In this document: piece after piece, positions 46,838 through 64,000 of the stretch
How positions within the stretch are numbered: the stretch's first letter is position 1
How the letters are laid out: every line of letters begins with the position of its first letter
Assembly: GCA_050018395.1 (NCBI GenBank)
Contig: JBEKAC010000002.1
Location: 84,429-148,428 of the forward strand
DNA length: 64,000 bases
Source: Dehalococcoidales bacterium
GTDB lineage: Bacteria > Chloroflexota > Dehalococcoidia > Dehalococcoidales > RBG-16-60-22
Direction: 5' to 3'
The notes under the pieces: generated by a model
Seen by the model: the letters and a program-made list of their open reading frames with translations, nothing else
Database searches by the model: none
What the model was told of the DNA's origin: nothing
Position numbers and translations under genes: made by a program

Positions 46838-46860
46838 AGCAGCATCGGAGGCGGGCAACA

Positions 46861-47150: not shown

Positions 47151-47511
47151 GTGAAGGCCCATGCCGCGCCTATCTTCAAATGTTGCGACAGCCTGCCGTT
47201 ATCGGAGGGAAGAGAAGTAGAAGGGAAGTAGAAGAGAATTAGAAATAGAAGATATTAGGGTGCTCTTATTAATAATCTCTCCTGTCCAGCCAATAGCGAC
47301 CAGCCCCACAGCTCCATAGCTTTTAGTGCTCGTCCAGCGCCGCCCGCGGGGGCGGAGTTTCGGCATCAGATAAATTAAAGCCCCATAGCCATAGCCTGAA
47401 CGCCGGGCGCGCACCGTTCCGGTAAATGTTCGCTACGCTATCACTGGACGGCTGTGATAAAGAAATGGTAAACTCTGCTACCTTCTACATGGTTTAAGCA
47501 GGGGGATTAAA

Positions 47512-47958: not shown

Positions 47959-48461
47959 TCCATCCTGAAGACCCCCACAATCCAAATCGGGGTCGAAAAC
48001 CATCTCCATTCATAGTTTTACTCGCGGCCAGCATTCTTAGCTAGGTTATGACCTACAGAGCCACTGTCATCCACCACAATGGAAGACTACGATAACCAAG
48101 CGTAGAGGTAGGGTATCCCCGGCCTTCTTACTCCCCCCGCCGCCCCCAGGCAATAAAACCCCTACGCAGAGTCTACATAAGTTTGGTTTTTGTACGCCCC
48201 TCCTTTCATAGCTAAGTCGTGTGTAAAGCCCCCGGCTTTTACGCAAGCCTGCAAAATCATGGAGGCGTATGGGTATTTTGGGAGGGGAGTGCTCGTCTTG
48301 GGGAAATTCAGCTTTGGGTCAGGTAGCAATTAATCGGATAAATCAGAGGTAATTCAAGGCATTTAACTGGTAATCATCCGCTAATAACAGACTCTCAAAT
48401 ATATTGAGAAAAGAATCACAGGCTCGAAATTTTGGAACGTGGGGGTCGTGGGGAGTGTTCA

Positions 48462-48836
48462 CTAATAGCGGACGAGCCCTGTATATCGCAATGTTTTACC
48501 TGTGGCTGGGTCTACATAACTTAGCTTCCAGCGTGTTCCCCTCTCTACTAATGGTAATGTAAGGGATTGTGAACGATTCTCCTCTAAACCGGATAAGCGC
48601 TCTCTTTTTTTACCTAACTTTAGATAAGCCTTTTGTACCTCGCCAACCGTGCTTAGATTGCATATGGTTTGCTCATTTGTTTTGTACCAGCCTACTATTA
48701 TGCCCGGTTCATCTCCACCAACAGCTATCTCTAAATTACGCGAACTTCGCAGGGCTAGGAATGCCACAACCAACGCAGCCATCCCGAGCACTAAAGTAAT
48801 GATGAATTGCCAGTTTTGAACAATATAATCTATCAT
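48462..48836 (-). CDS. Hypothetical membrane-anchored protein (124 aa)
   Basis: One N-terminal TM helix (FIITLVLGMAALVVAFLAL). AGGAG RBS. Confidence 0.5.
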   Translation of the reverse strand: MIDYIVQNWQFIITLVLGMAALVVAFLALRSSRNLEIAVGGDEPGIIVGWYKTNEQTICNLSTVGEVQKAYLKLGKKRERLSGLEENRSQSLTLPLVERGTRWKLSYVDPATGKTLRYTGLVRY

Positions 48837-48981
48837 TAGCTATTACTCCTTAATAATCAACTTTATTACCCTTTGAATGGGTCTTCAAGAATCATAATAT
48901 TATATAACATTAGCCACTTTATATTGTGGTATAATACCCCTACGACTTTAAAGGTCAAGTACACGACTAAAGGAGGGGAAC

Positions 48982-49233
48982 ATGCCAGAGATTAGAGACT
49001 CATTTGAGCAATTGGTTGAGTATAAAGCCAGAAGGATGTTGGGTAAAGTCAAATATCAGACCTACCTTAGAAATTTACTTAACGAGTTGGAAATAAAGTC
49101 ACCCGAAGAAGCTTTTTTAGCTGGTGCAATAGATGCGATGATATATGACGTGGGCTTAAACTTAGGACAAGCCTATGCCAGACACACGATGCGAAAAACA
49201 CTTGTTGAAAAGATATTCAGAGCAGTTAAGTAA
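48982..49233 (+). CDS. Hypothetical protein (83 aa)
   Basis: AAGGAGGGG RBS before the ATG. Confidence 0.5.
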   Translation: MPEIRDSFEQLVEYKARRMLGKVKYQTYLRNLLNELEIKSPEEAFLAGAIDAMIYDVGLNLGQAYARHTMRKTLVEKIFRAVK

Positions 49234-49282
49234 AAAGCAAGCCCCCGGATATTAACAGTCTAAGGGCTTTAGGAGTATTAGC

Positions 49283-49450
49283 ATGGCGGCAAAAGGATGC
49301 CCGGTAAAGTTCCCGATGAAGTGTAGGGATTGCCCCCTCTCTTTACAAGATAGGTTAGCTAGGTGTAGCTGGTATAGAAACCTTAGAGACAGGTATATAG
49401 GTATTAATCCGAGAGGTTGGCATTCCAGATTTTTCAATCTTCCGCAATAG
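49283..49450 (+). CDS. Small Cys-rich ORF (55 aa), below the ORF-track cutoff
   Basis: AGGAG RBS 9 nt before ATG 49283. Translates to MAAKGCPVKFPMKCRDCPLSLQDRLARCSWY.... Confidence 0.3.
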   Translation: MAAKGCPVKFPMKCRDCPLSLQDRLARCSWYRNLRDRYIGINPRGWHSRFFNLPQ

Positions 49451-49555
49451 CTAACCCAAACAATAAGCCCCGAACTGTATCGTCCGGGGTCTATCGTAAA
49501 TCCGCTTACCGGGCCGGGTTAACTAACTATCGCAGTGTAAAACATCATGCTATCC

Positions 49556-50599
49556 TTAAACTTCACCGACCTCGTATAGTGTTCCACCATCGCTATAGAC
49601 TCCCACCTGCCCAGCCGCTTGGATAGGACTGGCAAACGGGCTGTATCTCCTGTGTGTGTCGTGTATTTCCTCTTTATCTATGTGCGTGTAGATGTCAGCA
49701 GTAATGGCGATGGAGGCATGACCCAAGAGCCTGCTTACCACTTCCAATCGTGCCCCATTCCTGAGGCTTTGCGTGGCAAAGTAGTGCCTGAGAGCATGTG
49801 GGGTAAATGGCTTGACTCCGCATCGTTTGCATTGTCGCTTGAAGGTCTTTTCAAAGCTGCGTTCGTCCAGGTAGCCTGTAGGGTTATTGGCCGGGAATAA
49901 CCAATCGCTATGTCCGTCACGCTCAATCCATGCCTTTAGCACTTGTGCCACATAGGGTGATGTGGGGACAGTCCTTGGTTTTCTGCCCTTTCCCATCACC
50001 CTGATTTCCAGGCTATCGAAGTTGACGTCAGACTTTTTAATTGAGCAAGCCTCGCCCAGCCGTAAGCCGGTATTTGCCAGCAGCAGGCTCATAGTTCTGA
50101 ATTGCTGAGTATCGCTGCCATGCCAGCATTTGCTTTTCAGAACTTTGTCAATGTCATCCTTTGTAGGCAACTCCCGCTCGCCGTAAGTAACCCTAAATGA
50201 CTGTAAGCTGGCGGTCGGGTCAGCGGGTATTAAACCAGCTCCGCAAAGGAACTTGAAAAACGAGCGCAGGGCTTTGCGTTCACTGGATACCCTGGCGGGA
50301 CTTACCTCGTCAAATCTTTTAGCTATGTAGCCCTCGATGCTCAGCCGGGTAGGATGGGGGTCATGTTTGAGATAGCGCCTGACATCCTGTTCGTAGCCCC
50401 TAACTGTTCTATCTGCTTGTCGCTTGGCCTTCAAGTTTGCCACCCACAAGAGTACGCCTTCGTCTAGATTCTGTAAACCTGTTGAAGCTGTAGGTGCTAC
50501 CTTGTTTCCATCAGCCAAGCCCTGAAAAAGGTTTGCCAGCATTTGCTGGGCCAATTGCTGTGCGAGTGCTTGAACTTGAGGGTCTACACGTGATGGCAA
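49556..50599 (-). CDS. Tyrosine-type site-specific integrase
   Basis: SAM-like N-domain, then RLGEAC (Arg), HALRHYFAT (HxxR) and LLGHASIAITADIYTH (catalytic Tyr). TTG start. Adjacent to the tRNA target. Confidence 0.9.
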   Translation of the reverse strand: MPSRVDPQVQALAQQLAQQMLANLFQGLADGNKVAPTASTGLQNLDEGVLLWVANLKAKRQADRTVRGYEQDVRRYLKHDPHPTRLSIEGYIAKRFDEVSPARVSSERKALRSFFKFLCGAGLIPADPTASLQSFRVTYGERELPTKDDIDKVLKSKCWHGSDTQQFRTMSLLLANTGLRLGEACSIKKSDVNFDSLEIRVMGKGRKPRTVPTSPYVAQVLKAWIERDGHSDWLFPANNPTGYLDERSFEKTFKRQCKRCGVKPFTPHALRHYFATQSLRNGARLEVVSRLLGHASIAITADIYTHIDKEEIHDTHRRYSPFASPIQAAGQVGVYSDGGTLYEVGEV

Positions 50600-50663
50600 A
50601 GAAAAAGCCCGCTTTTGAGAGCTTGGATTAGTATCCGATAGCTTAAGCGGGCTATTTGGTTCT

Positions 50664-50738
<75 letters not shown>

Positions 50739-50875: not shown

Positions 50876-51742
50876 TTACTTGGGCTGTTGAGCGGCCAGG
50901 GCGGCGGCGCGCTTGCGGTGGTCTTCCAGGTAGCGCCGGGCGAACCTGTCGCGGCCGAGGACAAGGTCGGCGGAAAGCACGGCCGGGAGCACTTTAGCCG
51001 CATCGGCGATCAGGGCGGTGCCGCCGGCTTCGATGACCATCGCCATCCAGGCGTTATTCAATATCAGCCGGTCCGGCATCCCGAACGAGATATTGCTGGC
51101 GCCCATCGTCATGTTCAGGCCAAGTTCGGTACGTATCTGGCGCAGGGCATTAAGGACGTCTTTGGCCGCCTTGGGCTCGGCGCCGATAGCATACGTCATA
51201 ACGTCGATAACCAGGTCTTCCCTGGGCACGCCCATTTTCTCACAGGCCTCGACAATCTTATAGGTCACGGCCACGCGGCGTTCGGTACTCTTGGGGATGC
51301 CCTCGTCGTCCTGGGCCAGTCCGATGACCGCGGCGCCGTACTCTTTGATCAGCGGCAGGACGCGGTCCAGGCGTTTCTTCTCGCCGCTGATGGAATTGAC
51401 CAGCGGTTTGCCCTTATAGACCTTCAGGCCGGCTTCCAGGGCGTCCGGATTGGGGCTATCGATACAGATGGGCACGTCCACCGTGTCCATGATGATTTTG
51501 ATAGCTTCGGGCAGGAGTTTGACGTCATTCACGCCCGCCGCGTTGACGTTGCAGTCCAGGATGGTGGCCCCGGCAGCGACCTGCTCTAGGGCTTCCTTCC
51601 TGACGATAGCCAGGTCGCCGGCCTTGAGCGCTTCGGCCATTTTCTTCTTGCCGGTGGGATTGATGCGCTCGCCGATGATGACCGTTGGCCGGTCGTAAGA
51701 AATAATGACTTCTTTAGTCGGGGTAGATACCTTCGTTTCCAT
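50876..51742 (-). CDS. Pterin-binding methyltetrahydrofolate:corrinoid methyltransferase (MtrH/AcsE/MetH-pterin-domain-like)
   Basis: VIIGERINPTGKKK...ILDCNV...PICIDSPN...NSISGE pattern of DHPS-like pterin-binding barrels. 18 nt downstream of paralogue A. Confidence 0.8.
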   Translation of the reverse strand: METKVSTPTKEVIISYDRPTVIIGERINPTGKKKMAEALKAGDLAIVRKEALEQVAAGATILDCNVNAAGVNDVKLLPEAIKIIMDTVDVPICIDSPNPDALEAGLKVYKGKPLVNSISGEKKRLDRVLPLIKEYGAAVIGLAQDDEGIPKSTERRVAVTYKIVEACEKMGVPREDLVIDVMTYAIGAEPKAAKDVLNALRQIRTELGLNMTMGASNISFGMPDRLILNNAWMAMVIEAGGTALIADAAKVLPAVLSADLVLGRDRFARRYLEDHRKRAAALAAQQPK

Positions 51743-51760
51743 GTTTTTACTCCTATATTT

Positions 51761-53095
51761 TTAATAAACGCCGTATTCTTTAACGGCCTCCATCATCACC
51801 CGCAGAACAGCGGGGTTGCCTTCATTCATGCTGGCCGCCCCGGTCAGTATGTAGCCGCCGCCCGGCGCACAGGTCTCGATGAGCTTTTTGCAGTATTCTT
51901 TCACTTCTTTCGGGGTCTTGGTATGCAGCACCGACGAAGGCACATTACCGGCGATGCAGGCCACACCGCCGAGGACTTTTTTCGCCCGCGCCATGTCGAT
52001 ATCCTCAAAGCTCCACAATATCGCGCTTTTGGGCATTTCCTTGATGACGTCAAGGCGCGCGCCGTATCTGCCCTCGGCGAAGGGGTAAGGCACCAGACCG
52101 GCTTCGATCTGGCCCATGAGCACACGCCGGTAGGTAGGCCAGTAGAACGTTTCGAACTGTTTGGGGGACATAAAGCTTTCGTCGCCTTTGTGCAGTGGCA
52201 TGAAGCAGAACGGGCACCCGGTGATATCAGCCACGGCAATCGAGCCCTTGATGATGTTGGGGACGACGGCCTCCATTGCTTCGTGCAGCCTTTCCGGCTG
52301 GCGGTACATATCCATGACCATGCCTTGAGTGCCGCGCAGCATATCGGCGACGTTATCGAAGGGAGCGCCGCCCATGCCGCCGCCGCGCAGGTTAGGGATG
52401 CCCGCCGCCAGCGACGCCAGGTTGACTTCCGTCACGACCTGCTGCCACTTGCGGACCTCTTTGCCGGCCTCGATCATCGTTTTAAAAGCGGCCTCGACGT
52501 CCGGCGCGGCCATGGCCGCGTAAAACATCAGGGGCGGGCCCATCATGCCGGTCATTTGCGGCAGCTTTTGCAGCGGCTCCAAAGCCCCGACGGACCGCGG
52601 CAGGAGGAACCGCCACCAGAAATCCGCCGGGTTGCTGAGGAGCAGGGGATACTCGTCGGCCTTCATATAGTCTTTTTCCACGTATTGATATAAAGGAGCG
52701 CTATCCGGCAGGCCGTGTCCCGGCCACTTGTGGAGGCGGTGGTCGGTAATATCCAGCGCCTTACCGGGGAAAACGAGGCTGGGACCGGTGTAGGCGTCCA
52801 TATCAAATTCCGCGATGAATTTAAGGTATGCCTGCTTCAATTTAGCGTAGTCATACATGACTTCCTTGAGATTGAAGCCGGCATAATAGGCGGGGAAAAA
52901 GCCGGAGGGCAGCATGCAGGGTACGCGGTCCGGCTCTTCCAGTTTAACAGCCTTGATAAAGCGGGTCGTCCGCTCTTGATGGAGCTTTTCCGCGGCCTGG
53001 CTACTGAACTTGATGCCCGGGTTTTGCCAGCGCTTAAAGCGTTCTTCGCGCTTTTGCTGCCAGGTAAGGTTTTCCCAGTTAGCTATGCCTTCCAT
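51761..53095 (-). CDS. URO-D-superfamily corrinoid-dependent methyltransferase, paralogue A of 7
   Basis: 444 aa. LTWQQKREERFKRW N-terminus, EEPDRVPCMLP, MPLHKGDESFMS and C-terminal GGGYILTGAA...EYGVY. Confidence 0.75.
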   Translation of the reverse strand: MEGIANWENLTWQQKREERFKRWQNPGIKFSSQAAEKLHQERTTRFIKAVKLEEPDRVPCMLPSGFFPAYYAGFNLKEVMYDYAKLKQAYLKFIAEFDMDAYTGPSLVFPGKALDITDHRLHKWPGHGLPDSAPLYQYVEKDYMKADEYPLLLSNPADFWWRFLLPRSVGALEPLQKLPQMTGMMGPPLMFYAAMAAPDVEAAFKTMIEAGKEVRKWQQVVTEVNLASLAAGIPNLRGGGMGGAPFDNVADMLRGTQGMVMDMYRQPERLHEAMEAVVPNIIKGSIAVADITGCPFCFMPLHKGDESFMSPKQFETFYWPTYRRVLMGQIEAGLVPYPFAEGRYGARLDVIKEMPKSAILWSFEDIDMARAKKVLGGVACIAGNVPSSVLHTKTPKEVKEYCKKLIETCAPGGGYILTGAASMNEGNPAVLRVMMEAVKEYGVY

Positions 53096-53201
53096 AAGTT
53101 TACCCTCTTATTATCCATCAAAATACTATTCTACGCCATCCGCTGAAATGCTGAATAACTAAACTCAAAAGTCAAAACTTAAAGCTGAAATATTAGTATT
53201 T

Positions 53202-53305
53202 GTCATTGCGAGGAGCGTAGCGACGTGGCAATCTCTTTTTTCGTCTTACAGCAACCATGGGGATTGCCGCGCCTCCCGACTGTGGTCGGGATGGCTCGCA
53301 ATGAC
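53202..53305. repeat. MITE-like long imperfect palindrome (GTCATTGCGAGGAGC ... GCTCGCAATGAC family)
   Basis: gtcattgcgaggagcgtagcgacgtggcaatc ... gattgccgcgcctcccgactgtggtcgggatggctcgcaatgac. A related copy is at 57772-57887. Confidence 0.75.
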
Positions 53306-53313
53306 AGTGAAAA

Positions 53314-54648
53314 CTAGTATTTCCCGTATTCCTCCGCCGCCTCGATCATGGCGTGCAGGTTGGCCGGGTCGCATTTACTGATGCTGGAGGCTCCGGCTAA
53401 AATATAGCCCCCGCCCCGCCCACAGGTCTCGATAAGCTTGCGGCAGGCTTCCTTGACGATTTTGGGCGTGCTGGTGGCGATAAGGGAGGACGGCACGTTG
53501 CCGGAGATGCAGGCGGTACCGCCGAGGATTTGCTTGGCTTTGGCCATGTCCATCACTTCAAAATACCACACGATGCCGGACCGGGGCATGTCTTTGATGA
53601 TATCCAGCCGGGGCTCGTAGTTGCCTTCGGCGAAGGGCATGGGTACGAGGCCTTCGTTGATCATGCCGAGCAACACCTGCTTGAAGGTAGGCCAGTAAAA
53701 CTCCTCGAACTGTTTGGGAGACATGAAGGATTTATCGCCCTTATGCAGGGGCATGGAAACCACCGGGCTTAACGATGCGTCGGTGCCTTTCACGGCCAGT
53801 TTCACGATGATGGGCACCAGGCGCTCCATGGCTTCTTTAATTTTTTGCGGCTGGCGGTACATGTCCATGACGATGCCCTGCGTTCCCCGCAGAACATCGG
53901 ACACATTATCGAAAGGCGCCCCGCCCATCCCCCCGCCGAAAGAAGCCAGCCCCGCCGCCAGCGCCTCGCGGTTTACGGCGCCGACGGCGTCACGCCACTG
54001 CACCATCTCTTTGCCGGCGGCTATCAACGTTTCAAAGGCTTTTTGCACGTCCGGCCGGGAGAAAGACATCACCCAGCCGAGCGGGTTGGTGAGAACGGGG
54101 TTGAAGGGGGCTAAATACTGGAACGGCTCCAGGGCTCCGGCGGTGCGGGGCAGGAACGTATGCATCCAGTATTCAGTGGGGTTTTCCATGAATTCGCCGT
54201 ACTCTTCCGGCTTCATGTAAACGCCCTCGACGAACTGGTACATGGGGGCGTTATCCGGCAGGCCGTGGCCCGGCCATTTATGGAGCTTGTGCCCGATTAT
54301 CTCGATAACGCGGCCGGGGTAAACCAGGCCGGGGCTGGCGAAGCTGTCCGCCGGGAAATCCCGGTTGAATTTCCGCCAGGCCTCGGAAAGCTTTTTATAA
54401 TCGTACATCACTTCCTTGAGCGAATAGCCGGCGTAAACGGCGGGGTAATAGCCGGTGGGGAGCATGACCGGCACGCGGTCCGGCTCCTCCAGCTTGATAA
54501 CTTTGATAAAGCGCGTGACCCGTTCCCGGTATTTCTTTTTAGCTTCCGGGCTATTGAACTCGACACCGGGGGCGTCGAGCCATTTTTTAAAGCGCGCCTC
54601 CCGCTTTTCCTGCCAGGTAAGGTTTGACCAATTTGCTACGCCTTCCAT
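53314..54648 (-). CDS. URO-D-superfamily corrinoid-dependent methyltransferase, paralogue B of 7
   Basis: 444 aa. Same conserved blocks (LTWQEKREARFKKW, EEPDRVPVMLP, MPLHKGDKSFMS, GGGYILAGAS). Confidence 0.75.
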   Translation of the reverse strand: MEGVANWSNLTWQEKREARFKKWLDAPGVEFNSPEAKKKYRERVTRFIKVIKLEEPDRVPVMLPTGYYPAVYAGYSLKEVMYDYKKLSEAWRKFNRDFPADSFASPGLVYPGRVIEIIGHKLHKWPGHGLPDNAPMYQFVEGVYMKPEEYGEFMENPTEYWMHTFLPRTAGALEPFQYLAPFNPVLTNPLGWVMSFSRPDVQKAFETLIAAGKEMVQWRDAVGAVNREALAAGLASFGGGMGGAPFDNVSDVLRGTQGIVMDMYRQPQKIKEAMERLVPIIVKLAVKGTDASLSPVVSMPLHKGDKSFMSPKQFEEFYWPTFKQVLLGMINEGLVPMPFAEGNYEPRLDIIKDMPRSGIVWYFEVMDMAKAKQILGGTACISGNVPSSLIATSTPKIVKEACRKLIETCGRGGGYILAGASSISKCDPANLHAMIEAAEEYGKY

Positions 54649-54670
54649 CGGTCACCTCCGGTGACAAATT

Positions 54671-54698
54671 CCAATAACCAAGATACAATAACCAAATC
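54671..54698. repeat. W motif (CCAATAACCAAGATACAATAACCAA) just upstream of the paralogue B start
   Basis: Read directly. Related copies are at 56265-56286, 59244-59283 and 60831-60893. Confidence 0.75.
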
Positions 54699-54886
54699 AA
54701 AAGTCAAAAATCAAATCTCAAAGACACAGATAAAAAAGGAAAAAATATTTGATCTTTGGTTGCGCCAGCAATATATTTTTAATCTCACCTTTTATTTATA
54801 AGTTATGTTTTTGATTTTTGTGCCGATTCCTCAACGTCATGCGGCATCCCGAGTGCTATCGGGAAGTTTTGAGATTTGATTTTTAG

Positions 54887-56221
54887 TTAGTATTTCCCGT
54901 ATTCTTTGGCGGCATCCATCATGGCGCGGAGGTTTTCCGGTTTAGCCATGTCAAAAGTGGAGCCGCCGCTGAGCATATAGCCGCTGCCCGGGGCACAGGT
55001 CTCGATGAGCCGGCGGCAGTATTCTGTCATTTCCTTGGCCGTGCCGGTATAAGCGACGGACACGGGGACATTACCGACGATGCAGGACACCCTGCCGACG
55101 GTTTTCTTGGCGTTGGCCATGTTCGTCTGGTCGAACATCCAGACGACGGCGGATTTAGGCATGTCCGAGATGTATTCCAGGCGGCGGTTATAAGCGCCTT
55201 CCGCCACCGGGAAAGGCTCGAGGCCTTCTTCCGCCATGCCGAGGAGCAGCCGTTTGAAGGTAGGCCAGTAAAAAATCTCGAACTGCTTATCGGACATGAA
55301 AGCGTCGTCGCCCTTGTGCAGGGGCATCATGACCACGGGGCAGTCGGCGGCATCGGACATGGCGATAGCGCCGCGCAAAAGCTGGGGCAGGACGAACTCC
55401 ATCGCCTCGTGGATTTTATCCGGCTGGCGGAACATGTCCATGACGATGCCCTGCGTGCCGCGCAGGCTGTCCGCGAAGACATCGAAGGGCGCCACGGCCA
55501 TCCCGCCGCGGAACATGGGGAAACCTTTAGCCGCCGCGGCTTGATTGGTCTCGGCGGTGGCTTTGTTCCAGGCCGGGAGATACTGGCTGGCTTCCCAGAT
55601 AGCCTTGAATAGCTTCTGGAAACGGGGGTCCTGGCACATGGCCATCAGGCGCTGCGGCAGGCCCTGGTAAGACGAAAACGAAGGAACATCGGCAAAAGGC
55701 TCGAAGACGCCTATGGTGCGGGGCAAAAGACGCCTTAGCTGAAAATCGAACGGGTCTTTCATGAAAAGGTCGTATTCATCTGCCTTCATGTAGACGCCCT
55801 CGACGTACTGGTAGGAATGAGCGTCATCCGGCAGGCCGTGACCCGGCCATTTCTGCGTTTTGGATTCCAGGATGTCATTGACCCGGGCGTGGAAAAAGAG
55901 CGTGCCGTCAAAGGTATCGGAATCGTATTCATCCACGAACTTGAGCCAGACCTGCTTCATCAGCTCCGGGTCGTACATGCACTGTTTTAGCGTGACGCCG
56001 GCGTTCCAGGCGGGGAACCAGCCGGTGGGTATCATGCAGGGCACGCGGTCCGGTATTTCCATTTTGGTGGCCCGGGCCAGGCGGGTGGCGCGGTCTTTAT
56101 ATCCCTTTTCCGCCTCTTTGTTGGCGAATTTCACGTCCGGGGCGCTGATCCAGTGGTTAAGGCGCAAGTCGCGCCGCTGCTGCCAGGTAAGGTTAGTCCA
56201 ATTATCCGGTCTTTTAAACAC
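54887..56221 (-). CDS. URO-D-superfamily corrinoid-dependent methyltransferase, paralogue C of 7
   Basis: 444 aa. LTWQQRRDLRLNHW, EIPDRVPCMIP, MPLHKGDDAFMS and GSGYMLSGGS. Confidence 0.75.
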   Translation of the reverse strand: MFKRPDNWTNLTWQQRRDLRLNHWISAPDVKFANKEAEKGYKDRATRLARATKMEIPDRVPCMIPTGWFPAWNAGVTLKQCMYDPELMKQVWLKFVDEYDSDTFDGTLFFHARVNDILESKTQKWPGHGLPDDAHSYQYVEGVYMKADEYDLFMKDPFDFQLRRLLPRTIGVFEPFADVPSFSSYQGLPQRLMAMCQDPRFQKLFKAIWEASQYLPAWNKATAETNQAAAAKGFPMFRGGMAVAPFDVFADSLRGTQGIVMDMFRQPDKIHEAMEFVLPQLLRGAIAMSDAADCPVVMMPLHKGDDAFMSDKQFEIFYWPTFKRLLLGMAEEGLEPFPVAEGAYNRRLEYISDMPKSAVVWMFDQTNMANAKKTVGRVSCIVGNVPVSVAYTGTAKEMTEYCRRLIETCAPGSGYMLSGGSTFDMAKPENLRAMMDAAKEYGKY

Positions 56222-56264
56222 TATATACAGCCTCCAATTTTACTAAACAATGCATAGTTTAATG

Positions 56265-56286
56265 CCAATAACCAAGATACAAATTC
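56265..56286. repeat. W motif copy upstream of the paralogue C start
   Basis: ccaataaccaagatacaaattc. Partial inverted partners (ttggttatttgatttgattattgg) lie at 56325-56349. Confidence 0.7.
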
Positions 56287-56381
56287 AAAACAAATTTCAA
56301 GTTCCAATATCCAACGACCAAATGTTTGGTTATTTGATTTGATTATTGGTCTTTATTTGGTCATTGTTTCTTGTGATTTGG

Positions 56382-57728
56382 TTATTTCTTGTATACTCCG
56401 TACTCTTTCGCGGCGTCCATCATGGCCTTAAAGTTTTCAAATTTACCGTGATCGCAACTCGCGCCGCCGCCCAGGACATAGCCGCCGCCCGGAGCGCAGT
56501 CTTTGATGAGCTGCTTGCAGTAGTCCGTTACCTGCTGGGCGGTGCCGGTAATCATGATCGAGGTGGGGACGTTGCCCACGATGCAACAGATGTTTCCGAG
56601 TATCCGCTTGGCTTCCTTCATATCCGTCTGGTCAAACAACCAAACGACACCGGTAGGCGGAGTATCCGTAATCTGCTTCAGCCGGTTCGTGTATTTGCCT
56701 TCCGCGAAAGGCATCGGCACCAGGCCTTCATTAATCATGGCCAGGAGCATGCGGCGGTAAGTGGGCCAGTAGAATTCCGCAAATGCCTTATCAGACATGA
56801 ACATGTCATCGCCTTTATGCAGGGGCATAATGCAAACGGGGCTGTTGGTCATCGGGAAATTTTTAATTGTCGATTCTATAGACAGGTTAAGATACCATTC
56901 CATCGCCTCGTGCAGTTTTTTCGGCTGCCGGAACATGTCCTTGACGATGCCGTGTGTACCGCGCAAAGCATCGGCGAAGTGGTCGAACGGGGCGCCGGCC
57001 ATCATGCCGAAGCCGCCGAGCGGGGGATAGCCTTGCGCCCTGATGTAGCTGTTGATTTCCGTCTGGGCGGCCATATATTTGTTCTGCTCATCAACCATGG
57101 ATTGAAGCTTCTTAACGATGGCTGTCATTTCCGGGTTGGCTAGTATGGAAATAAAAGTCGTCGCGCCCATCATGCCGCGCATCGGCGGCAGGTTTTTGAA
57201 GGGGGCGAAGAAATCCGACGTGCGGGGGAGCATGACGCGGAGATTGTAATCGGTCGGGTCTCGCATATACATATCGTACTCGTCAGCCATCATGTATTCG
57301 CCCTCGACGAACTCGTTCATCCTGGCCGTAACCGGGAGACCGAGGCCGGGGAGCTTTTGCTGCTTTGAAGGGAGTGTTTCGGCGATCTTGCCGGAGGGTA
57401 TGAAAGAGGGGCCGCCGAAGGTATCCATGTCCCCGAAGGCTTTCATGTATTTTTTCCAGATATCAATGCCTTTTTGATAGTCATACATCAGGGTATGGAA
57501 GTCCGACCCCGCCCAGTAAGCCGGGTAGTTCCCGGTGGGCAGCATGACCGGCACGCGGTCCGGCTCTTCCAGCTTGATGGCCTTGATGAAACGGGTGACG
57601 CGCGCTTTATAGAGCTGTTCCGCTTCTTTGTTGACGAATTTGACATCCGGCGGATTGAGCCACCGCTTGAAGCGCTCCTCCCGCCTTTGCTGCCAGGTCA
57701 TGTTTTCCCAGTTAGGTATGCCTTCCAT
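56382..57728 (-). CDS. URO-D-superfamily corrinoid-dependent methyltransferase, paralogue D of 7
   Basis: 448 aa. MTWQQRREERFKRW, EEPDRVPVMLP, MPLHKGDDMFMS and GGGYVLGGGA. Confidence 0.75.
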   Translation of the reverse strand: MEGIPNWENMTWQQRREERFKRWLNPPDVKFVNKEAEQLYKARVTRFIKAIKLEEPDRVPVMLPTGNYPAYWAGSDFHTLMYDYQKGIDIWKKYMKAFGDMDTFGGPSFIPSGKIAETLPSKQQKLPGLGLPVTARMNEFVEGEYMMADEYDMYMRDPTDYNLRVMLPRTSDFFAPFKNLPPMRGMMGATTFISILANPEMTAIVKKLQSMVDEQNKYMAAQTEINSYIRAQGYPPLGGFGMMAGAPFDHFADALRGTHGIVKDMFRQPKKLHEAMEWYLNLSIESTIKNFPMTNSPVCIMPLHKGDDMFMSDKAFAEFYWPTYRRMLLAMINEGLVPMPFAEGKYTNRLKQITDTPPTGVVWLFDQTDMKEAKRILGNICCIVGNVPTSIMITGTAQQVTDYCKQLIKDCAPGGGYVLGGGASCDHGKFENFKAMMDAAKEYGVYKK

Positions 57729-57771
57729 TAAAATCCTCCTAAATTACTAAATGATAACAAGTACGCGCTCC

Positions 57772-57887
57772 GTCATTGCGAGGAGTCCCGATAAAATCGG
57801 GACGACGAAGCAATCCCGCTGATTAACCGTGAGATTGCTTCGCCCCGATGGTTCGACAGGCTCACCATGAGCGGGGCTCGCAATAAC
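57772..57887. repeat. MITE-like long imperfect palindrome, second copy of the GTCATTGCGAGGAG family
   Basis: gtcattgcgaggagtcccgataaaatcgggacgacgaagcaatc ... gagattgcttcgcc...ggggctcgcaataac. Confidence 0.75.
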
Positions 57888-57896
57888 AATTATACC

Positions 57897-59237
57897 CTAA
57901 TACTTCCCGTACTCCTTGGCCGCCGCCATCATCGCCCGCAGGTTCTCCGGGTTGCCGATGTCCATGAAGGCGCTGGCGGTCAGGATATAGCCGCTGCCCG
58001 GCGCGCAAATCTCAATCAGCTCGCGGCAGAGCTGCTTCACTTCTTGCGGCTTACCGGTGACCATGACGGTGACCGGCACATTGCCGGCGAAACAGGTGTG
58101 CCCGCCGAGGACTTGCTTGGCTTTGACCATGTTCATTTTTTCAAAATACCAGACGACCGATGTCCGCGGCATGTCCCTGATAATTTCCAGGCGCGGCTCG
58201 TAATCGCCTTCGGCGAAGGGCAGCGGCACCAGCCCCTCGTTAATGAGGCCCAGCATGACCGCTTTAAATGACGGCCAGTAAAACTCCTCGAACTGCTTAT
58301 TAGACATAAAGCCGCCCGTGCCTTTATGCAGCGGCATGAAAACCAGCGGGGAGGCATCCGCATCGGCGGCGCTGACCGATTCGTTGATGGCGATAGGCAC
58401 GAGCCTGGCCATGGCTTCGTGCAGCTTGGCCGGCCGCTGGAACATGTCCATCATGATGCCTTGGGTGCCCCTTAACCAGTCCCCGACCATATCAAAGGGC
58501 GCCCCGTTCATCCCGCCCCAGACGTTAGGGAAACCGGCGGCCAGCGCCGCCCGGCCTACCTCGCCGACGGTGGCCGCCCATTTAGCGGCTTCCTGCCCGG
58601 CTTCGAGCAATTTAAGGTAGGCGGCGCGGACTTCGGGGTCGCCGAAACTCACCACGTAATTGGCCGGTATCCCGATGAACGGCGTGAGGGGCCCGAGCTT
58701 GCTCAAGCCTTTCAGGGCGCCGTTGGAGCGGGGCATGAACCACCGCTGGAGATAATCCGCCGGGTCGCGGATAAGGTCATCGTATTCCTGCGGTTTCATA
58801 TATTCGCCCTCGATAAACTGGTGTGAGGGCGCATTATCGGCGAGGCCGTGCCCCGGCCATTTCTGGATATTGTAATCTAGGATTTCCAGCACCCTGCCCG
58901 GGAAGACCAGGCCGGGCGGGATAAAGGAATCCATATCAAAATCATGCAGGAATTTCAGCCAGACGCGTTTGAGCTCGGCGTAATCATACATCACTTTTTT
59001 CAGGTTAACGCCGGCATAGACGGCCGGGTAATACTCCACCGGCATGATGACCGGCACGCGGTCCGGTTTTTCCAGTTTGATGGCCTTGATGAAACGCGTG
59101 ACGCGTGTTTTATAAAGCTGTTCCGCTTCTTTGTTGACGTACTTCACACCCGGCGGGTTGAGCCATTTCTCAAAGCGCACTTCGCGCTTTTCCTGCCAGG
59201 TCATATCCGCCCATTTTTTTTGTTCAGCTATTTCCAT
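57897..59237 (-). CDS. URO-D-superfamily corrinoid-dependent methyltransferase, paralogue E of 7
   Basis: 446 aa. MTWQEKREVRFEKW, EKPDRVPVIMP, MPLHKGTGGFMS and GSGYILTASA. Confidence 0.75.
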   Translation of the reverse strand: MEIAEQKKWADMTWQEKREVRFEKWLNPPGVKYVNKEAEQLYKTRVTRFIKAIKLEKPDRVPVIMPVEYYPAVYAGVNLKKVMYDYAELKRVWLKFLHDFDMDSFIPPGLVFPGRVLEILDYNIQKWPGHGLADNAPSHQFIEGEYMKPQEYDDLIRDPADYLQRWFMPRSNGALKGLSKLGPLTPFIGIPANYVVSFGDPEVRAAYLKLLEAGQEAAKWAATVGEVGRAALAAGFPNVWGGMNGAPFDMVGDWLRGTQGIMMDMFQRPAKLHEAMARLVPIAINESVSAADADASPLVFMPLHKGTGGFMSNKQFEEFYWPSFKAVMLGLINEGLVPLPFAEGDYEPRLEIIRDMPRTSVVWYFEKMNMVKAKQVLGGHTCFAGNVPVTVMVTGKPQEVKQLCRELIEICAPGSGYILTASAFMDIGNPENLRAMMAAAKEYGKY

Positions 59238-59243
59238 ATCCCT

Positions 59244-59283
59244 CCAATAACGACCAATAATTCATTTGGTTATTGTATCTTGG
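59244..59283. repeat. W motif copy (imperfect hairpin) just upstream of the paralogue E start
   Basis: ccaataacgaccaataattcatTTGGTTATTGTATCTTGG. Confidence 0.7.
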
Positions 59284-59444
59284 GATTTGGAGTTTTCGCC
59301 TGTTGCTGGCGTTTCTGCACCGGGGTCATCTTTGCCGTTTGTTCTGCCATAATCCTGCCCTTAATTGCCGGTAGATTAGCGGCCGCCATGCTATTAAGAA
59401 TGCCCCTTGCCCTCCGGTGGTAAGACAGGGCTCGTTAAAAACGT

Positions 59445-60782
59445 CTATTTATAATAGCCGTATTCTTCGGCGGCCTCGAGGATGGCGTGCAGATTCGCCG
59501 GGTCGCATTTATCGATGCCGGAGCCGAGCGAAAGGATATAGCCGCCGCCCTTGCCGCAGGTCTCGATAAGCTTGCGGCAGTACTCCTTGATGACCGGCGG
59601 GGTCAGCGTGTAAAGCTGCGCCGCGGTAACATTGCCGGAGATGCAGGCGGCATTGCCCAGGATTTTCTTGGCCAGGAACATATCCGTCTTTTCCATCGTC
59701 CAGACCACCGAGCTGCGGGGCAGCTCGCTGATAATTTTGAGGCGGGCTTCATTGTAGCTGCCGTCGATGACCATCATCGGCACGCAGCCTTCTTTAATGC
59801 ACCCCAGCAGGAGCTTGCGGAAGGTGGGCCAGTAGAATTTCTCGAACTGCTTCACGGACATAAAGCTGTCATCGCCCTTGTGCATCGGCACGAAAACTAC
59901 CGGGCTTTTAGCCATGTTGACCATACCTACTGCCGATTCGATGGTGCGGTCGGCGATGACGTCCAGCGTCTCCAGCAGTTTTTCCGGCTGGCGGTACATA
60001 TCCATGACGGAGCCGTGCGTCCCGCGGAGCATGTCCGCCACGGTATCGAAGGGCGCCAGCATCACGCCGCCCGCTAACGGGGGATAGCCGTAGGCTAACG
60101 AAAGGCGGAGGCATTCGCCCATCACCTTCTGATACTTGGCGCTTTCTTTAGCGGCCGCCTGGATAGCTTTAAACAGCTTCTGGAACTTGGGGTCGAGGCA
60201 AAGCATCATGAGGCGCTCGGGAAGGCCCTGGTAAGAGGAAAAAGAGGGCAAATCGGCCAGCGGCTCGAAGGCGCCCCAGGTGCGGGGGGTAAAGTGCCGC
60301 AGGCCGAAATCGAAGGGGTCTTTCATGAAAAGGTCGTACTCGTCCGCCTGCATATACTCTTTTTCCACGAAGTTGTGCATGGTGGTCGTGTCCGGCAGGC
60401 CGTGGCCGGGCCACTTGTTCACTTTATAATCGAGGATTTCATAGGCCCGGCCGGAGAAAAACCCCGGGCCGTCATTGGAATCCTGTTCGTAATCTTTGAG
60501 CCATTTCTCCCAGGCGGGTTTGATAATATCCGGGTTATAGAGCATGTCTTTAAGGGTGTACCCGGCGTTGTAGGCGATCATGGAGTTGCCGGCGATGTGT
60601 ACCGGCACGCGGTCCGGTATCTCCATCTTGATGGCTTTAATCATCCGGTTGGCGCGGGTGGCATATTTTTTAGCCATCGCCGGGCTGTTGAATTTGATGC
60701 CGGTGGTATCCAGCCACTTCTTGAAACGCTCGTCGCGTTTTTCCTGCCAGGTCAAGTCCTGCCAGCTTTTTTCGGTCTCCAT
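59445..60782 (-). CDS. URO-D-superfamily corrinoid-dependent methyltransferase, paralogue F of 7
   Basis: 445 aa. LTWQEKRDERFKKW, EIPDRVPVHIA, VPMHKGDDSFMS and GGGYILSLGS. Confidence 0.75.
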   Translation of the reverse strand: METEKSWQDLTWQEKRDERFKKWLDTTGIKFNSPAMAKKYATRANRMIKAIKMEIPDRVPVHIAGNSMIAYNAGYTLKDMLYNPDIIKPAWEKWLKDYEQDSNDGPGFFSGRAYEILDYKVNKWPGHGLPDTTTMHNFVEKEYMQADEYDLFMKDPFDFGLRHFTPRTWGAFEPLADLPSFSSYQGLPERLMMLCLDPKFQKLFKAIQAAAKESAKYQKVMGECLRLSLAYGYPPLAGGVMLAPFDTVADMLRGTHGSVMDMYRQPEKLLETLDVIADRTIESAVGMVNMAKSPVVFVPMHKGDDSFMSVKQFEKFYWPTFRKLLLGCIKEGCVPMMVIDGSYNEARLKIISELPRSSVVWTMEKTDMFLAKKILGNAACISGNVTAAQLYTLTPPVIKEYCRKLIETCGKGGGYILSLGSGIDKCDPANLHAILEAAEEYGYYK

Positions 60783-60830
60783 ACCAGTCGTCCCCCGCTA
60801 AATATACAGAATAAAAGGTCTAAAAAGAAT

Positions 60831-60893
60831 GACCAATAATCAAGATACAATAACCAAGTCGGGTTTAATCAAACGTTTGGTTATTGTATCTCG
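60831..60893. repeat. W motif as a near-perfect 17-bp-stem hairpin between paralogues G and F
   Basis: CAAGATACAATAACCAA (60841-60857), a 19-nt loop, then TTGGTTATTGTATCTCG (60877-60893). 16 of 17 positions are complementary. Confidence 0.8.
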
Positions 60894-60904
60894 TGATTCG
60901 TTTT

Positions 60905-62236
60905 TTATTTATAGACGCCGTATTCTTTAGCCGCGGCCATCATCGCCCGCAGGTTTTCCGGGTTGCCTTCATCGACGTTGGCGCCGCCGGCCAGGACATA
61001 ACCGCCGCCTTTGCCGCAGACCTCGATGAGTTTCCGGCAGTGTTCCTTCATCTGCTGGGGTGTGCCCGTCATTATCAGGGAAGTGGGTACGTTGCCGAGG
61101 ATACAGCATCTATCGCCGATCTTTTCTTTAGCTTTAAAGATATCCGTCTGGTCGAAGTACCAGCCGACGGAGCCTTTGGGGAAATCGCCGATGATATCGA
61201 GGCGCTTATTATAGCTGCCTTCGGCGAAGAGTATCGGGAAAATCCCCTCGTTCACCAGCGCCATGACCACTTTTTTAAAGGTGGGCCAGTAGAAAGTCTC
61301 GTACTGCTTGATGGACATGAAGCTATCGGCGCCCTTGTGCAGCGGGAAAATAACGATGGGTGCCGTGGCATTTTCCACCGAGGAAATCGCCGCCTGGATG
61401 GTGATGGGGGCGATTCTTTCCATGGCAGCCTGGAGCTTGGCCGGCCGCTGGAACATGTCCATCATGATACCCTGGGTGCCCCGCAGCGTATCGCCGAGGG
61501 TATCGAAGGGCGCCTTGGCCAGCCCGCTCATGAAGCCGGGGTAGCCCATGGCTAAAGCTTCTACCGCCACCTCGCCGACGTAGGTTATCCACCGCATGGT
61601 TTCCTCGCCGGCTTTCATCAGGGCGTTGAAGCCCGCCTGCACTTCCGGCAGGCCGAATGGCAGGAAGGACTGGATGGCGATTTCTTCAAAAGTGGTCCAG
61701 GCCGGCAGCTGCGGAAAGGCCTTTAGCGCGCCGAAGACCCGGGGCATGTAGGTGCGCAGCCAGAAATCGGACGGGTCCCGGATTAAAGCGTCGTATTCAT
61801 CCGGCTTCATCCACTCGCCTTCGACCGCCTGGTAGGAAAGCGTGGTCTTGGAAAGACCGTGACCCGGCCATTTATACAGCTTGTAGTCGACGGCGTCCAG
61901 GGCCCGGCCCGGGGGCACAAGGGCGGGGGGAACGTAGGTATCCGCCTCGAAATCGTGAAGCAGTTTCAGCCAGGCGCTTTTCATCTTGGGATAGTCGTAC
62001 ATCACCTCGCCGAGGTTGGTGCCGGCGTAGGACGCGGCGAAAAACCCCGTGGGCAGGATGCACGGTACCCTGTCCGGTTTTTTCAGTATCAGGGCGTTAG
62101 AGAACCGCGAAACCCTGGCTTTATAGTCTTTCTCTGCCTGCGGACTGGCAAATTTAACACCAGGCGGAGAAAGCCACCGCTTAAAGCGTCGTTCCCGCTT
62201 TTCTTCAGGAGATAACTCCGCCCATGTCTTGTCCAT
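60905..62236 (-). CDS. URO-D-superfamily corrinoid-dependent methyltransferase, paralogue G of 7
   Basis: The start is taken at MDKTWAELSPEEKRERRFKRW (ATG 62236), one nt after the corrinoid-protein stop. KKPDRVPCILP, FPLHKGADSFMS and GGGYVLAGGA. Confidence 0.75.
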   Translation of the reverse strand: MDKTWAELSPEEKRERRFKRWLSPPGVKFASPQAEKDYKARVSRFSNALILKKPDRVPCILPTGFFAASYAGTNLGEVMYDYPKMKSAWLKLLHDFEADTYVPPALVPPGRALDAVDYKLYKWPGHGLSKTTLSYQAVEGEWMKPDEYDALIRDPSDFWLRTYMPRVFGALKAFPQLPAWTTFEEIAIQSFLPFGLPEVQAGFNALMKAGEETMRWITYVGEVAVEALAMGYPGFMSGLAKAPFDTLGDTLRGTQGIMMDMFQRPAKLQAAMERIAPITIQAAISSVENATAPIVIFPLHKGADSFMSIKQYETFYWPTFKKVVMALVNEGIFPILFAEGSYNKRLDIIGDFPKGSVGWYFDQTDIFKAKEKIGDRCCILGNVPTSLIMTGTPQQMKEHCRKLIEVCGKGGGYVLAGGANVDEGNPENLRAMMAAAKEYGVYK

Positions 62237-62237
62237 G

Positions 62238-62873
62238 TTAGCTGACACCATACCACTTCTTGGCGAGGGTGACAGCCGCCATGGCATCTTTACCGAAGGC
62301 ATCGGCCTTGGCGTACTTGCGGACCTCGTCGTCCATCTGGCCGCCGCCGATCATAATTTTAATGTTCTTGCGCAGGCCGGCTTTATCCAGCGCCTCGACG
62401 GTCTCTTTCATGGCATCGAAGGCCGGGGTAAGGAAGCCGCTCAAACCGAGGACCGGCGCCTTGGAATCTTTCATCGCTTTGACGAACTTGTCGACGGGGA
62501 CATCGACGCCGAGGTTGGTGACCTCGAAGCCGTTAACGTCCAGCATGAAATCGACGATGTTGAGGCCGATATCATGAATATCGCCGGCCACGGTGCCGAT
62601 GACAACCTTGCCGATTTTCTTTACTTTGGTCCCGCCGCTGGTAAGGTGGGGCCTTAAAATCTCGGTAACCTGCCGGAGAAGCTCGCCGGAAAACACGAGT
62701 TCCGGTAGGAAATACTCGCCGGCGGCGAACCGCTTGCCGACGATCCCCATTGCCTTCGTGTTGTCCTCCAGGATTTTGTTCGGGTCTTCTTTATTAGCCA
62801 AGCGCTGTTTGAGCAGCTTGAGGACCTCTTCCTCTTTGAGATCCGCCATCAGGTTTACATAGTCTTCGGGCAT
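62238..62873 (-). CDS. Cobalamin (corrinoid)-binding protein, MtaC/MtbC/MtvC-like
   Basis: B12-binding motif GDIHDIGLNIV (DxHxxG), SGF..P and IMIGG. AAGGAGG RBS lies before ATG 62873 (MPEDYVNLMADLKEEEV). Confidence 0.85.
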   Translation of the reverse strand: MPEDYVNLMADLKEEEVLKLLKQRLANKEDPNKILEDNTKAMGIVGKRFAAGEYFLPELVFSGELLRQVTEILRPHLTSGGTKVKKIGKVVIGTVAGDIHDIGLNIVDFMLDVNGFEVTNLGVDVPVDKFVKAMKDSKAPVLGLSGFLTPAFDAMKETVEALDKAGLRKNIKIMIGGGQMDDEVRKYAKADAFGKDAMAAVTLAKKWYGVS

Positions 62874-63098
62874 ACCTTCTTCCTCCTTAGTTTTTTTGGT
62901 AATTACCTTAGATTGAAACGACAAGCCTGATTCATCTCAAGTGCAAATCGTTCATGGCGAGTATATCAATGCCGCCATAAAAAGTCAAATGTTACCATTT
63001 AAAGAGGTTAGTTAAGTCAACTTACAGGTTTTTTATATCCGGTAATGCCCGTGTTCTTTACAACCCGGGGCTTTTGGTTTAAAATTATAGGGCTTCGG

Positions 63099-63173
<75 letters not shown>

Positions 63174-63459: not shown

Positions 63460-64000
63460 GTGAAAGGCAACATTAATTCGAGCCCGCGGAACATCAGCCC
63501 CGGAAAAAGCGAACCGCTTTCCGGTTCCATCGCCCATGCCGCCAGTGTGCTGGACTGCATCAGCCAGGACACCCACGCTTTGACCGATATCGCCCGGGAA
63601 TGCAACCTCGGCAAATCCACCGTCCACCGCGTGCTCAAGCTGTTGGAACAGTCGCGGCTGGTGGTCCAGGACGTCCTTAACCGCCGCTACTACCTGGGGC
63701 CGCTGATTATGCAGCTGGCCTCCAACCCGCTGACCACCCACGAATACCTCATCATGTACGCCATCCAGGAGATGAAAAACCTGGCCAGGCTGTCCGAAGA
63801 GACCGTGGCGCTGGATATCATGGCCGGCATCCAGTATTTTTCCCTCTATGAAGTCCCGAGTCAGTTTGACCTTAAGGTAACACAGGAAAGCCGCATGTCC
63901 GGCAACCTCCAGGCCGGGGCGTCGGTCAAAGCGCTGCTTTCGCTATACAATGACAAACAGCTGAAAACAGCTTTGAACAGCATGGATATCGTCCGCACCA
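63460..64000 (+). CDS. IclR-family transcriptional regulator (partial; continues beyond the window)
   Basis: GTG 63460 follows TGCTATAAT. Translation is ...AASVLDCISQDTHALTDIARECNLGKSTVHRVLKLLEQSRLVVQD...RRYYLGP, a typical IclR N-terminal HTH. Open to the window end. Confidence 0.8.
   Translation, partial: MKGNINSSPRNISPGKSEPLSGSIAHAASVLDCISQDTHALTDIARECNLGKSTVHRVLKLLEQSRLVVQDVLNRRYYLGPLIMQLASNPLTTHEYLIMYAIQEMKNLARLSEETVALDIMAGIQYFSLYEVPSQFDLKVTQESRMSGNLQAGASVKALLSLYNDKQLKTALNSMDIVRT

Follow-up and report, generated by a model that had tools for sequence, protein, structure and literature searches.

Seven tandem UroD-fold methyltransferase paralogues between one corrinoid protein and one pterin methyltransferase: a putative demethylase array of Dehalococcoidales

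The closest described counterparts of the locus considered here are three-component corrinoid systems, which consist of a methyltransferase I (MTI), a corrinoid protein and a pterin methyltransferase II (MTII). The locus itself is a 12-kb unit of nine genes, all on the minus strand at positions 50876-62873 of a 64,000-nucleotide (nt) stretch of DNA from a Dehalococcoidales bacterium (GenBank assembly GCA_050018395.1, contig JBEKAC010000002.1, positions 84,429 to 148,428), and this whole stretch is referred to as the window. It encodes one corrinoid protein, seven URO-D paralogues and one pterin methyltransferase. Taken as a whole, it is read here, with moderate confidence, as a single regulated operon for a corrinoid-dependent demethylase array that would act mainly on O-methyl donors.

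The nearest characterised enzyme is CdmB, the zinc-free chloromethane MTI of Acetobacterium dehalogenans, an organism with 26 methyltransferase systems (PMC13222342). CdmB is a homodimeric, metal-free TIM barrel with UroD as its nearest fold, and insertions between its first three strands form substrate channels and dimer contacts (PMC13222342); the solved chain, 429 residues including a tag, contains no metal. It was grouped with the O-demethylase MTIs MtvB, OdmB, VdmB and MtoB, among which MtoB was the nearest characterised enzyme at 31% identity and MtvB is likewise zinc-free (PMC13222342). The CdmBCA system resembles the locus in the window in joining an MTI, a corrinoid protein and a pterin MTII, with a zinc-free UroD-fold MTI lengthened by insertions, while it differs in its single MTI per operon, its gene order B-C-A, its host among the Bacillota and its haloalkane substrates. 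The Mto, MtvABC, OdmABCD and Vdm systems lie on the same UroD branch in the published tree and follow the route proposed here, from a methoxylated aromatic to Co(I) and on to a pterin. In Methermicoccus shengliensis, MtoB1 and MtoB2 (47-48 kDa, 57% similar) are encoded beside a single MtoC and were proposed to differ in affinity (PMC8630106). This Mto operon (MtoB1/MtoB2-MtoC-MtoA-MtoD) is alike in that diverged MTI paralogues adjoin one corrinoid protein, yet it holds two MTIs instead of seven, includes activase and transporter genes, and has an MtoA that is MtrH-like and not MeTr-like. In Eubacterium limosum, a single corrinoid protein and MTII (MtqC/MtqA) serve several MTIs (MtpB, MtcB, MtyB), but these belong to the MttB superfamily, act on quaternary amines and do not form a single tandem array. 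Finally, MtaA, MtbA, CmuA and the Mlp proteins of type 1 MGCs share the UroD superfamily and corrinoid partners with the paralogues, while they are about 340 amino acids (aa) long, carry a His-Cys-Cys zinc site and act on thiol or selenol substrates or in an MT2 role (PMC10418091).

The nine genes of the window are listed from the corrinoid protein to the MTII:

62238-62873, minus strand: corrinoid (B12-binding) protein, 211 aa, with GDIHDIG as its DxHxxG motif; Pfam B12-binding 8e-22, B12-binding_2 2e-14
60905-62236, minus strand: MTI paralogue G, 443 aa, with a variant N-terminal motif, LSPEEKR
59445-60782, minus strand: MTI paralogue F, 445 aa, with Asp replacing Glu at position 341 (VIDG)
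57897-59237, minus strand: MTI paralogue E, 446 aa, a slot missing from some related arrays
56382-57728, minus strand: MTI paralogue D, 448 aa
54887-56221, minus strand: MTI paralogue C, 444 aa from a GTG start
53314-54648, minus strand: MTI paralogue B, 444 aa
51761-53095, minus strand: MTI paralogue A, 444 aa, ending 18 nt before the MTII gene
50876-51742, minus strand: MTII, a pterin-binding methyl-corrinoid:tetrahydrofolate methyltransferase (MeTr/AcsE-like), 288 aa; Pfam Pterin_bind 1.5e-30

This order, with the lengths, coordinates, shared direction and DxHxxG motif, agrees with an earlier note on the same DNA, which had also proposed a 1-nt gap between the corrinoid gene and paralogue G; the stop codon TAA at 62240-62238 is indeed followed by one base and then by the ATG of paralogue G at 62236. 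The tight same-strand packing at both ends (1 nt between the corrinoid gene and G, 18 nt between A and the MTII gene) counts in favour of one operon. The ATG assigned to the corrinoid protein is preceded by a ribosome-binding site, AAGGAGG, while the longest open reading frame (ORF) would begin at a TTG at 62924. For paralogue C, the public gene call (L001 6929-8209, 426 aa) starts 18 codons late and drops the conserved N-terminal helix. The corrinoid protein combines the B12-binding_2 cap with a Rossmann B12-binding domain, as its class does, and is MtgC/MtbC/MetH-like in NCBIfam, scoring below the cut-off of every specific equivalog. The MTII reaches 286 bits on NCBIfam NF005719 (cut-off 259), identifying it as a methyl-tetrahydrofolate:corrinoid methyltransferase. 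With this Pfam and NCBIfam content, the three-component system that had been proposed, seven MTIs between one corrinoid protein and one methyl-tetrahydrofolate methyltransferase, holds up, and the assignment of the locus to the corrinoid MTI/corrinoid protein/MTII systems can be made with high confidence. A chance origin of the nine-gene pattern is excluded, as the same contig is present in peat metagenomes and the same array in many other genomes.

The seven paralogues are clearly diverged, as had been thought: B to G share 47-59% pairwise identity with A, and 96 columns are invariant across all seven. The block (M/V/F)P(L/M)HKG..FMS is found in every one of them. An N-terminal motif had been described for six of seven with paralogue G as the variant, which is true of its TWQ part (SPE in G), while the RF(K/E)(R/K)W part is also kept in six but has its exception in paralogue C (RLNHW). 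All seven match Pfam URO-D (E 1e-20 to 4e-26), over profile positions of about 103-346 only; in six of them residues ~237-443 align to profile positions 140-346, and in D the match runs over residues 203-443 from profile position 103. Residues 1-240 span just the first 140 positions of the profile, and an AlphaFold2 model of paralogue A (mean pLDDT 94, pTM 0.91) places helices 146-230 among the extra elements. The N-terminal half thereby carries ~80-100 extra residues between the first barrel strands, as in the CdmB branch.

The URO-D match, the UroD-like fold and the database names could suggest that the genes encode genuine uroporphyrinogen decarboxylases, as in public annotation, where members of the family are named 'uroporphyrinogen-III decarboxylase'. 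In the Foldseek search of the PDB with the model of A, the top hits were UroD structures (TM 0.60-0.68 on target length) followed by MtaA, as expected of a UroD-type TIM barrel, in a library that ended in April 2026 and did not include the CdmB structure. On the HemE equivalog TIGR01464, however, only G, F, B and A give a match, of 24-32 bits against a cut-off of 303 and in the C-terminal half alone. These scores, the C-terminal-half profile match, the far closer relationship to CdmB and the presence of seven copies between a corrinoid protein and a pterin methyltransferase leave a decarboxylase function with virtually no weight, and the identity as true UroD that the earlier note had named as its refutation is itself refuted. 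An MtaA-type zinc enzyme was rejected likewise, with 21-47 bits on the MtaA/CmuA model TIGR01463 (cut-off 235) and the zinc ligands absent.

The single strong sequence match in the PDB is CdmB (9rui), with E 1.3e-55 for a profile of the seven sequences and 7.5e-33 for paralogue A alone; for the profile, the next matches are UroD at 2e-3 and MtaA at 0.09. The paralogues share 27-32% identity with CdmB over 296-390 aligned residues, in three alignment blocks along the whole length, and since this is similar to the 31% between CdmB and MtoB, it fits the family placement. The paralogues thus appear to belong to the CdmB/MtvB/MtoB branch of O-demethylase type. The extra ~100 aa and the missing HxC had been presented as oddities in a comparison with MtaA and UroD; both are normal, because the closest solved relative, CdmB, and its branch share them.

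Pairwise and profile alignments agree that the MtaA ligands, a His and a Cys (LHICG) and a third Cys, align with Phe339, Glu341 (Asp in F) and Ala420, so that the His-Cys-Cys zinc site is missing from the paralogues, as in the branch of CdmB. The earlier note had placed the PLHKG block where this HxC would be expected. While the block is present in all seven, it aligns with 'DSWGG' of UroD and 'PVWY' of CdmB, and the HxC falls one strand later, at F339-A-E341 in 'PFAEG'. Superfamily S-methyltransferases keep His-Cys-Cys, whereas O-methyltransferases have carboxylates or non-ligands instead of the cysteines (PMC10418091, Kountz and Balskus). By this criterion the Phe/Glu/Ala pattern fits the O-type or metal-free group, and thiol and selenol donors are disfavoured because the site is absent.

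Among 1.84 billion cluster representatives, 769 relatives were found at E <= 1e-30 and 2697 at E <= 1e-10, and conservation was counted over 103 diverse full-length representatives of the family. D247 (101), R254 (102) and D262 (102) are nearly universal, and H302 (89), K/R303 (81), E341 (92) and R347 (83) are kept in most. TIM-barrel active sites sit at strand ends, and in the model of A residues D247, R254, D262, H302, K/R303 and E341 each come no more than a few residues behind a predicted barrel strand. Such a polar His-Lys/Glu/Arg face suggests polar substrate binding together with leaving-group assistance, as in ether cleavage. CdmB has Trp, Tyr, Gln and Leu at 302, 303, 341 and 347, and was proposed to be a passive hydrophobic scaffold for halomethanes that need no activation (PMC13222342). 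CdmB also differs in lacking the N-terminal helix (residues ~8-24, TWQEKR..RFKRW), an apparent match there being its Strep-tag; the helix is present in just 33 of the 103 representatives.

These residues bear on the possibility that some or all of the paralogues are haloalkane MTIs like CdmB (for chloromethane, bromomethane or dichloromethane), or take S-methyl or other non-ether donors, in which case the array would serve halomethane or mixed one-carbon (C1) scavenging. CdmB is the only characterised close relative, the order Dehalococcoidales is known for organohalide metabolism, and peat is a natural source of methyl halides. It has further been argued that haloalkane MTIs arose repeatedly in uncharacterised UroD clades (PMC13222342). 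Yet the identity to CdmB is just 27-32%, while the close-homologue set used for conservation in that study began at 40% or more (PMC13222342), and the paralogues keep the polar His302, Lys/Arg303, Glu341 and Arg347 in place of Trp, Tyr, Gln and Leu, unlike an enzyme of the CdmB type. Moreover, the missing His-Cys-Cys site speaks against S- or Se-methyl donors, and seven specialised enzymes seem too many for few halomethanes. Haloalkane or other non-ether use is therefore considered unlikely, although it keeps more weight than the alternatives discussed below.

In the reading preferred here, an array for O-methyl donors, each MTI would be a metal-free UroD-fold TIM barrel in which a methyl donor specific to it is bound and offered to the corrinoid protein, whose Co(I) form would take the methyl group. 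The MTII would then move the methyl group from this putative shared carrier of all seven paralogues to tetrahydrofolate, from where it would be oxidised or enter acetyl-CoA synthesis, and an ATP-dependent reductive activase encoded elsewhere would keep the cobalt reduced. The donors would most likely be O-methyl compounds and chiefly methoxylated aromatics from lignin or peat, each paralogue taking its own compound or ring position. The sharing of a single corrinoid protein and MTII, the direction of methyl flow, the substrate class and the assignment of one substrate to each paralogue are all inferred, while gene content and order, fold, family placement, the missing zinc site and the ancient colinear conservation described below are established. 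That the seven differ in substrate is judged likely, and that the substrates are mainly methoxylated aromatics is given an even chance.

The reverse direction, in which methyl-tetrahydrofolate loads the corrinoid protein and the seven enzymes methylate different acceptors, also has to be weighed. In vitro, corrinoid methyl transfer of this kind can proceed both ways, and MtaA-type enzymes of the UroD superfamily consume methyl-corrinoid. The paralogues, however, show no more than remote similarity to MtaA (E 0.09), whose zinc site they lack, and the C-B-A gene set matches the catabolic Cdm, Mtv and Mto systems, leaving a biosynthetic role very improbable.

The array is not confined to this genome. 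In a scan of one genome per species, at least 564 stretches encode relatives, and the best 76 loci taken from these are overwhelmingly from metagenome-assembled genomes (MAGs) of Dehalococcoidales or Dehalococcoidia, with a few labelled Desulfobacterales, Acidobacteriota or Thorarchaeota. When arrays were called with hidden Markov models built from the window's proteins, 24 fetched loci showed the complete C-(B)n-A layout, with one corrinoid protein first and one MTII last; n ranges from 1-2 up to 8 or more, and many other arrays end at contig ends. The layout recurs in dozens of Dehalococcoidales genomes, so the array is a standard feature of a Dehalococcoidales lineage and not peculiar to the window.

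By best-hit assignment, the arrays follow a colinear order, G-F-(E)-D-C-(x)-B-A. Locus L027 has all seven genes in identical order at 71-82% identity; in L005, L010 and L080, E is missing and an additional B/E-like gene stands between C and B; and the array of L029 has eight MTI genes. Among the related arrays listed, most have an orthologue of G (64-89% identity) in the first slot, and A is always last before the MTII. Slots are gained or lost occasionally. Since orthologues (64-89% identical) are closer than paralogues (47-59%), with no sign of homogenisation, the duplications predate the divergence of the genomes, each slot having been kept separately. The paralogues are ancient, separately conserved orthogroups, which fits distinct specificities.

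Within orthogroups, conservation is lowest at residues 101-120, 181-240 and 281-300, mostly in the insertion that builds the substrate channels of CdmB, and highest at residues 41-60, 241-260, 301-320 and 401-420; a strict search for specificity-determining positions returned 6 sites only. The pattern is as would be expected, but is no proof, of a shared corrinoid-facing chemistry with a differing substrate pocket. Alternatively, the seven could be largely redundant isoenzymes kept for dosage, kinetics, regulation or heterodimer formation. The catalytic-face residues are common to all seven, CdmB is a homodimer that dimerises via its insertions, and the spacers between the genes might hold separate promoters, all of which would suit such redundancy. 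Against it stand the separate colinear orthogroups, at 64-89% within and 47-59% between, with no homogenisation, and the concentration of variation in the insertion forming the CdmB substrate channels. Redundancy is accordingly regarded as improbable.

Two related loci are unusual. In L004 (320-11338, on a 2.0-Mb contig), a related array has at least 10 URO-D matches, and several of these are broken into pieces of 138-323 aa, which are either pseudogenes or long-read frameshift errors. In L020, a 3-kb contig binned as Candidatus Thorarchaeota, two MTI genes are 70% identical to paralogue A, reflecting either mis-binning or a recent transfer from Dehalococcoidales.

The earlier note had further stated that in characterised systems one methyltransferase serves one corrinoid protein, which does not hold for MtoB1 and MtoB2 with their common MtoC (PMC8630106), and this pair, the 26 methyltransferase systems of A. 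dehalogenans and the MtqC/MtqA case make the sharing of a carrier less unusual. The enzyme type is known; new are the number of MTIs in tandem, seven to eight or more, the strictly kept bookends, the occurrence in this phylum and the subfamily itself, which is uncharacterised. The open literature on O-demethylases or corrinoid methyltransferases of Dehalococcoidia and Chloroflexi gave no account of these arrays, subscription journals lying outside its coverage. A survey of Stordalen Mire reported thousands of bacterial mtxB-type genes in 19 phyla, including genes for methoxylated compounds, and its main text does not mention Chloroflexota.

The paralogues are separated by spacers with elements of their own:

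53096-60904, minus strand: six intergenic spacers of 122-238 nt, AT-rich, with palindromic elements of two kinds

Motif 1 (CAAGATACAATAACCAA) occurs in 7 copies, all in the spacers G-F, F-E, D-C and C-B, while 0.17 chance matches are expected window-wide; in spacer G-F it gives a hairpin with a perfect 19-bp stem. Motif 2, an inverted GTCATTGCGAG[CG] pair, closes a branched structure of ~110 nt in spacers E-D and B-A. RNA-folding z-scores of the spacers, computed against mononucleotide shuffles, range from -0.2 to -4.1, the latter for E-D. Both motifs are found in spacers of related arrays, yet in different spacers among close relatives, and for this reason they resemble REP/MITE-type elements more than they do fixed operators. 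They may nevertheless affect how the transcript is processed, how stable it is or how the array recombines. At the Rfam gathering threshold, only two tRNAs were found, neither the leader nor the spacers giving a match to a cobalamin riboswitch or any other known RNA. Between the genes, the minus strand shows no convincing intrinsic terminator, candidates being as many as shuffled sequence would give. A TTGACT-16-TATCTT site lies ahead of gene B, where it overlaps motif 1.

The operon is flanked by two tRNA genes, and the features at its edges are as follows:

50664-50738, minus strand: tRNA-Met, bounding the operon downstream and serving as attachment site for an integrated element
62960-62988, minus strand: promoter-like site TTGACT-17 nt (with TG)-TATACT upstream of the corrinoid gene, with 10/12 matches in a scan for a sigma-70-like consensus
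63099-63173, plus strand: tRNA-Gly(CCC), between the regulator genes and the operon promoter
63460-64000, plus strand: start of a divergent IclR-family regulator gene that runs past the window end

The strong TTGACT-17-TATACT site is the likely candidate for the operon promoter, and it too counts towards a single operon. Beyond the window, the source contig (L083 3597-9414) continues with a second IclR gene, followed by genes for an SDR protein, a GNAT protein, a 667-aa fumarate-reductase/AprA-like flavoprotein and a small 2x[4Fe-4S] ferredoxin. Both IclR regulators resemble PcaR/PobR only distantly, and aromatic-acid catabolism is often under the control of IclR regulators. An NCBIfam scan of the upstream flavoprotein, the SDR protein and the regulators assigned no specific name. 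Very close homologues of the 667-aa flavoprotein (E 1e-216 to 1e-303) lie beside MTI genes in L042 and L043 (Dehalococcoidia) and L081 (a Terriglobia MAG).

On the other side, a group at 22818-28857 comprises a GH3 glycosidase with a PA14 insert, an alpha/beta hydrolase and, at 26731-28857, an enoate-reductase-like Fe-S flavoenzyme of OYE/FadH type (708 aa). An OYE-type flavoenzyme lies ~6 kb from the array in L005 (18219-21338) and L010, relatives without the inserted island, and homologues stand beside single MTI genes in several other, unrelated lineages (L060, L044, L076), in L060 (11343-15484) only 26 nt downstream of a lone MTI gene. It could be speculated that the OYE-type and fumarate-reductase-like flavoproteins act on cinnamate-type side chains, although such substrate clues from gene neighbourhood are weak. 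At distant loci with a single MTI or few (L028, L031, L042, L017, L074), a gene for a family-5 (Opp/Dpp-type) ABC solute-binding protein adjoins up- or downstream, which hints at dedicated substrate uptake. The habitat of the source is peat or wetland, with near-identical DNA in some twenty peat and wetland runs, and the closest named relatives are Dehalococcoidales MAGs.

Two further features of the window were noted. An integrated element of ~17 kb (33596-50703) sits at tRNA-Met, bounded by a perfect 41-bp direct repeat (33596-33636 = 50663-50703) that corresponds to the 3' part of the tRNA. It consists of low-GC DNA with a tyrosine integrase gene (49556-50599, minus strand) and two ORFs of very large size (38513-41701 and 41701-45690), of which the larger, at least, is of Eco57I type; in L005, which lacks the element, genes from 22-29 kb of the window follow the operon within ~6 kb. 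In addition, a heliorhodopsin gene (19795-20562, plus strand; Pfam PF18761, E 4e-97) is present in a genome that otherwise looks like that of an anaerobic peat Dehalococcoidales.

Several observations weigh against an operon for O-methyl donors. The nearest characterised enzyme, CdmB, uses haloalkanes and not methoxylated aromatics, and the link of the paralogues to the O-demethylases goes through CdmB and the tree in PMC13222342. They appear to form a distinct, uncharacterised metal-free subfamily; cluster names for ten diverse representatives of the family read just 'hypothetical' or 'uroporphyrinogen decarboxylase family', with no characterised enzyme among them. The window contains no activase of RACo or RamA type among its ORFs of at least 500 aa, all scanned or otherwise annotated, in line with the earlier note, and none was found among ten large ORFs flanking related arrays, which encode ABC family-5 binding proteins, a dihydroxy-acid dehydratase, an aldehyde:ferredoxin oxidoreductase, a flavoprotein and a TIG-domain protein. 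Wood-Ljungdahl and folate C1 genes are absent from the 64 kb as well, and the family-5 ABC neighbour is not specific to aromatics. A search for RNA runs holding gene A or the stretch of the corrinoid gene and G returned none, so that co-transcription is read from the layout, and spacers of 122-238 nt could accommodate internal promoters.

In anoxic soils, the methoxyl groups of lignin and of the organic matter in peat make up a large C1 pool, and the known anaerobic demethoxylators are acetogens, a few sulfate reducers and a few archaea. Which organisms remove these groups affects the supply of acetate, CO2 and methane precursors, and the searchable literature held no link between Dehalococcoidales and demethoxylation. 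The annotation as 'uroporphyrinogen decarboxylase' hides the pathway in metagenome surveys. The array also represents a natural panel of related enzymes with one corrinoid partner, of use for learning how specificity and the activation of methyl ethers without a metal are encoded, and perhaps for biocatalytic demethylation. Tentatively, the arrays of peat and soil Dehalococcoidales may work in demethylation and be built like cassettes, in which MTIs with a His-Lys/Glu/Arg face and a basic N-terminal helix are gained and lost between fixed corrinoid-protein and MTII bookends and use a new form of ether-bond activation; the palindromic spacer elements might drive the turnover of such an array or set the relative expression of its cassettes. 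That a conserved operon should hold as many as eight specialised methyltransferases, or more, points to an abundant uncultured group with a wide range of substrates, and if the cassette-array reading is true, uncultured Dehalococcoidales could be major anaerobic demethoxylators of lignin- and peat-derived aromatics.

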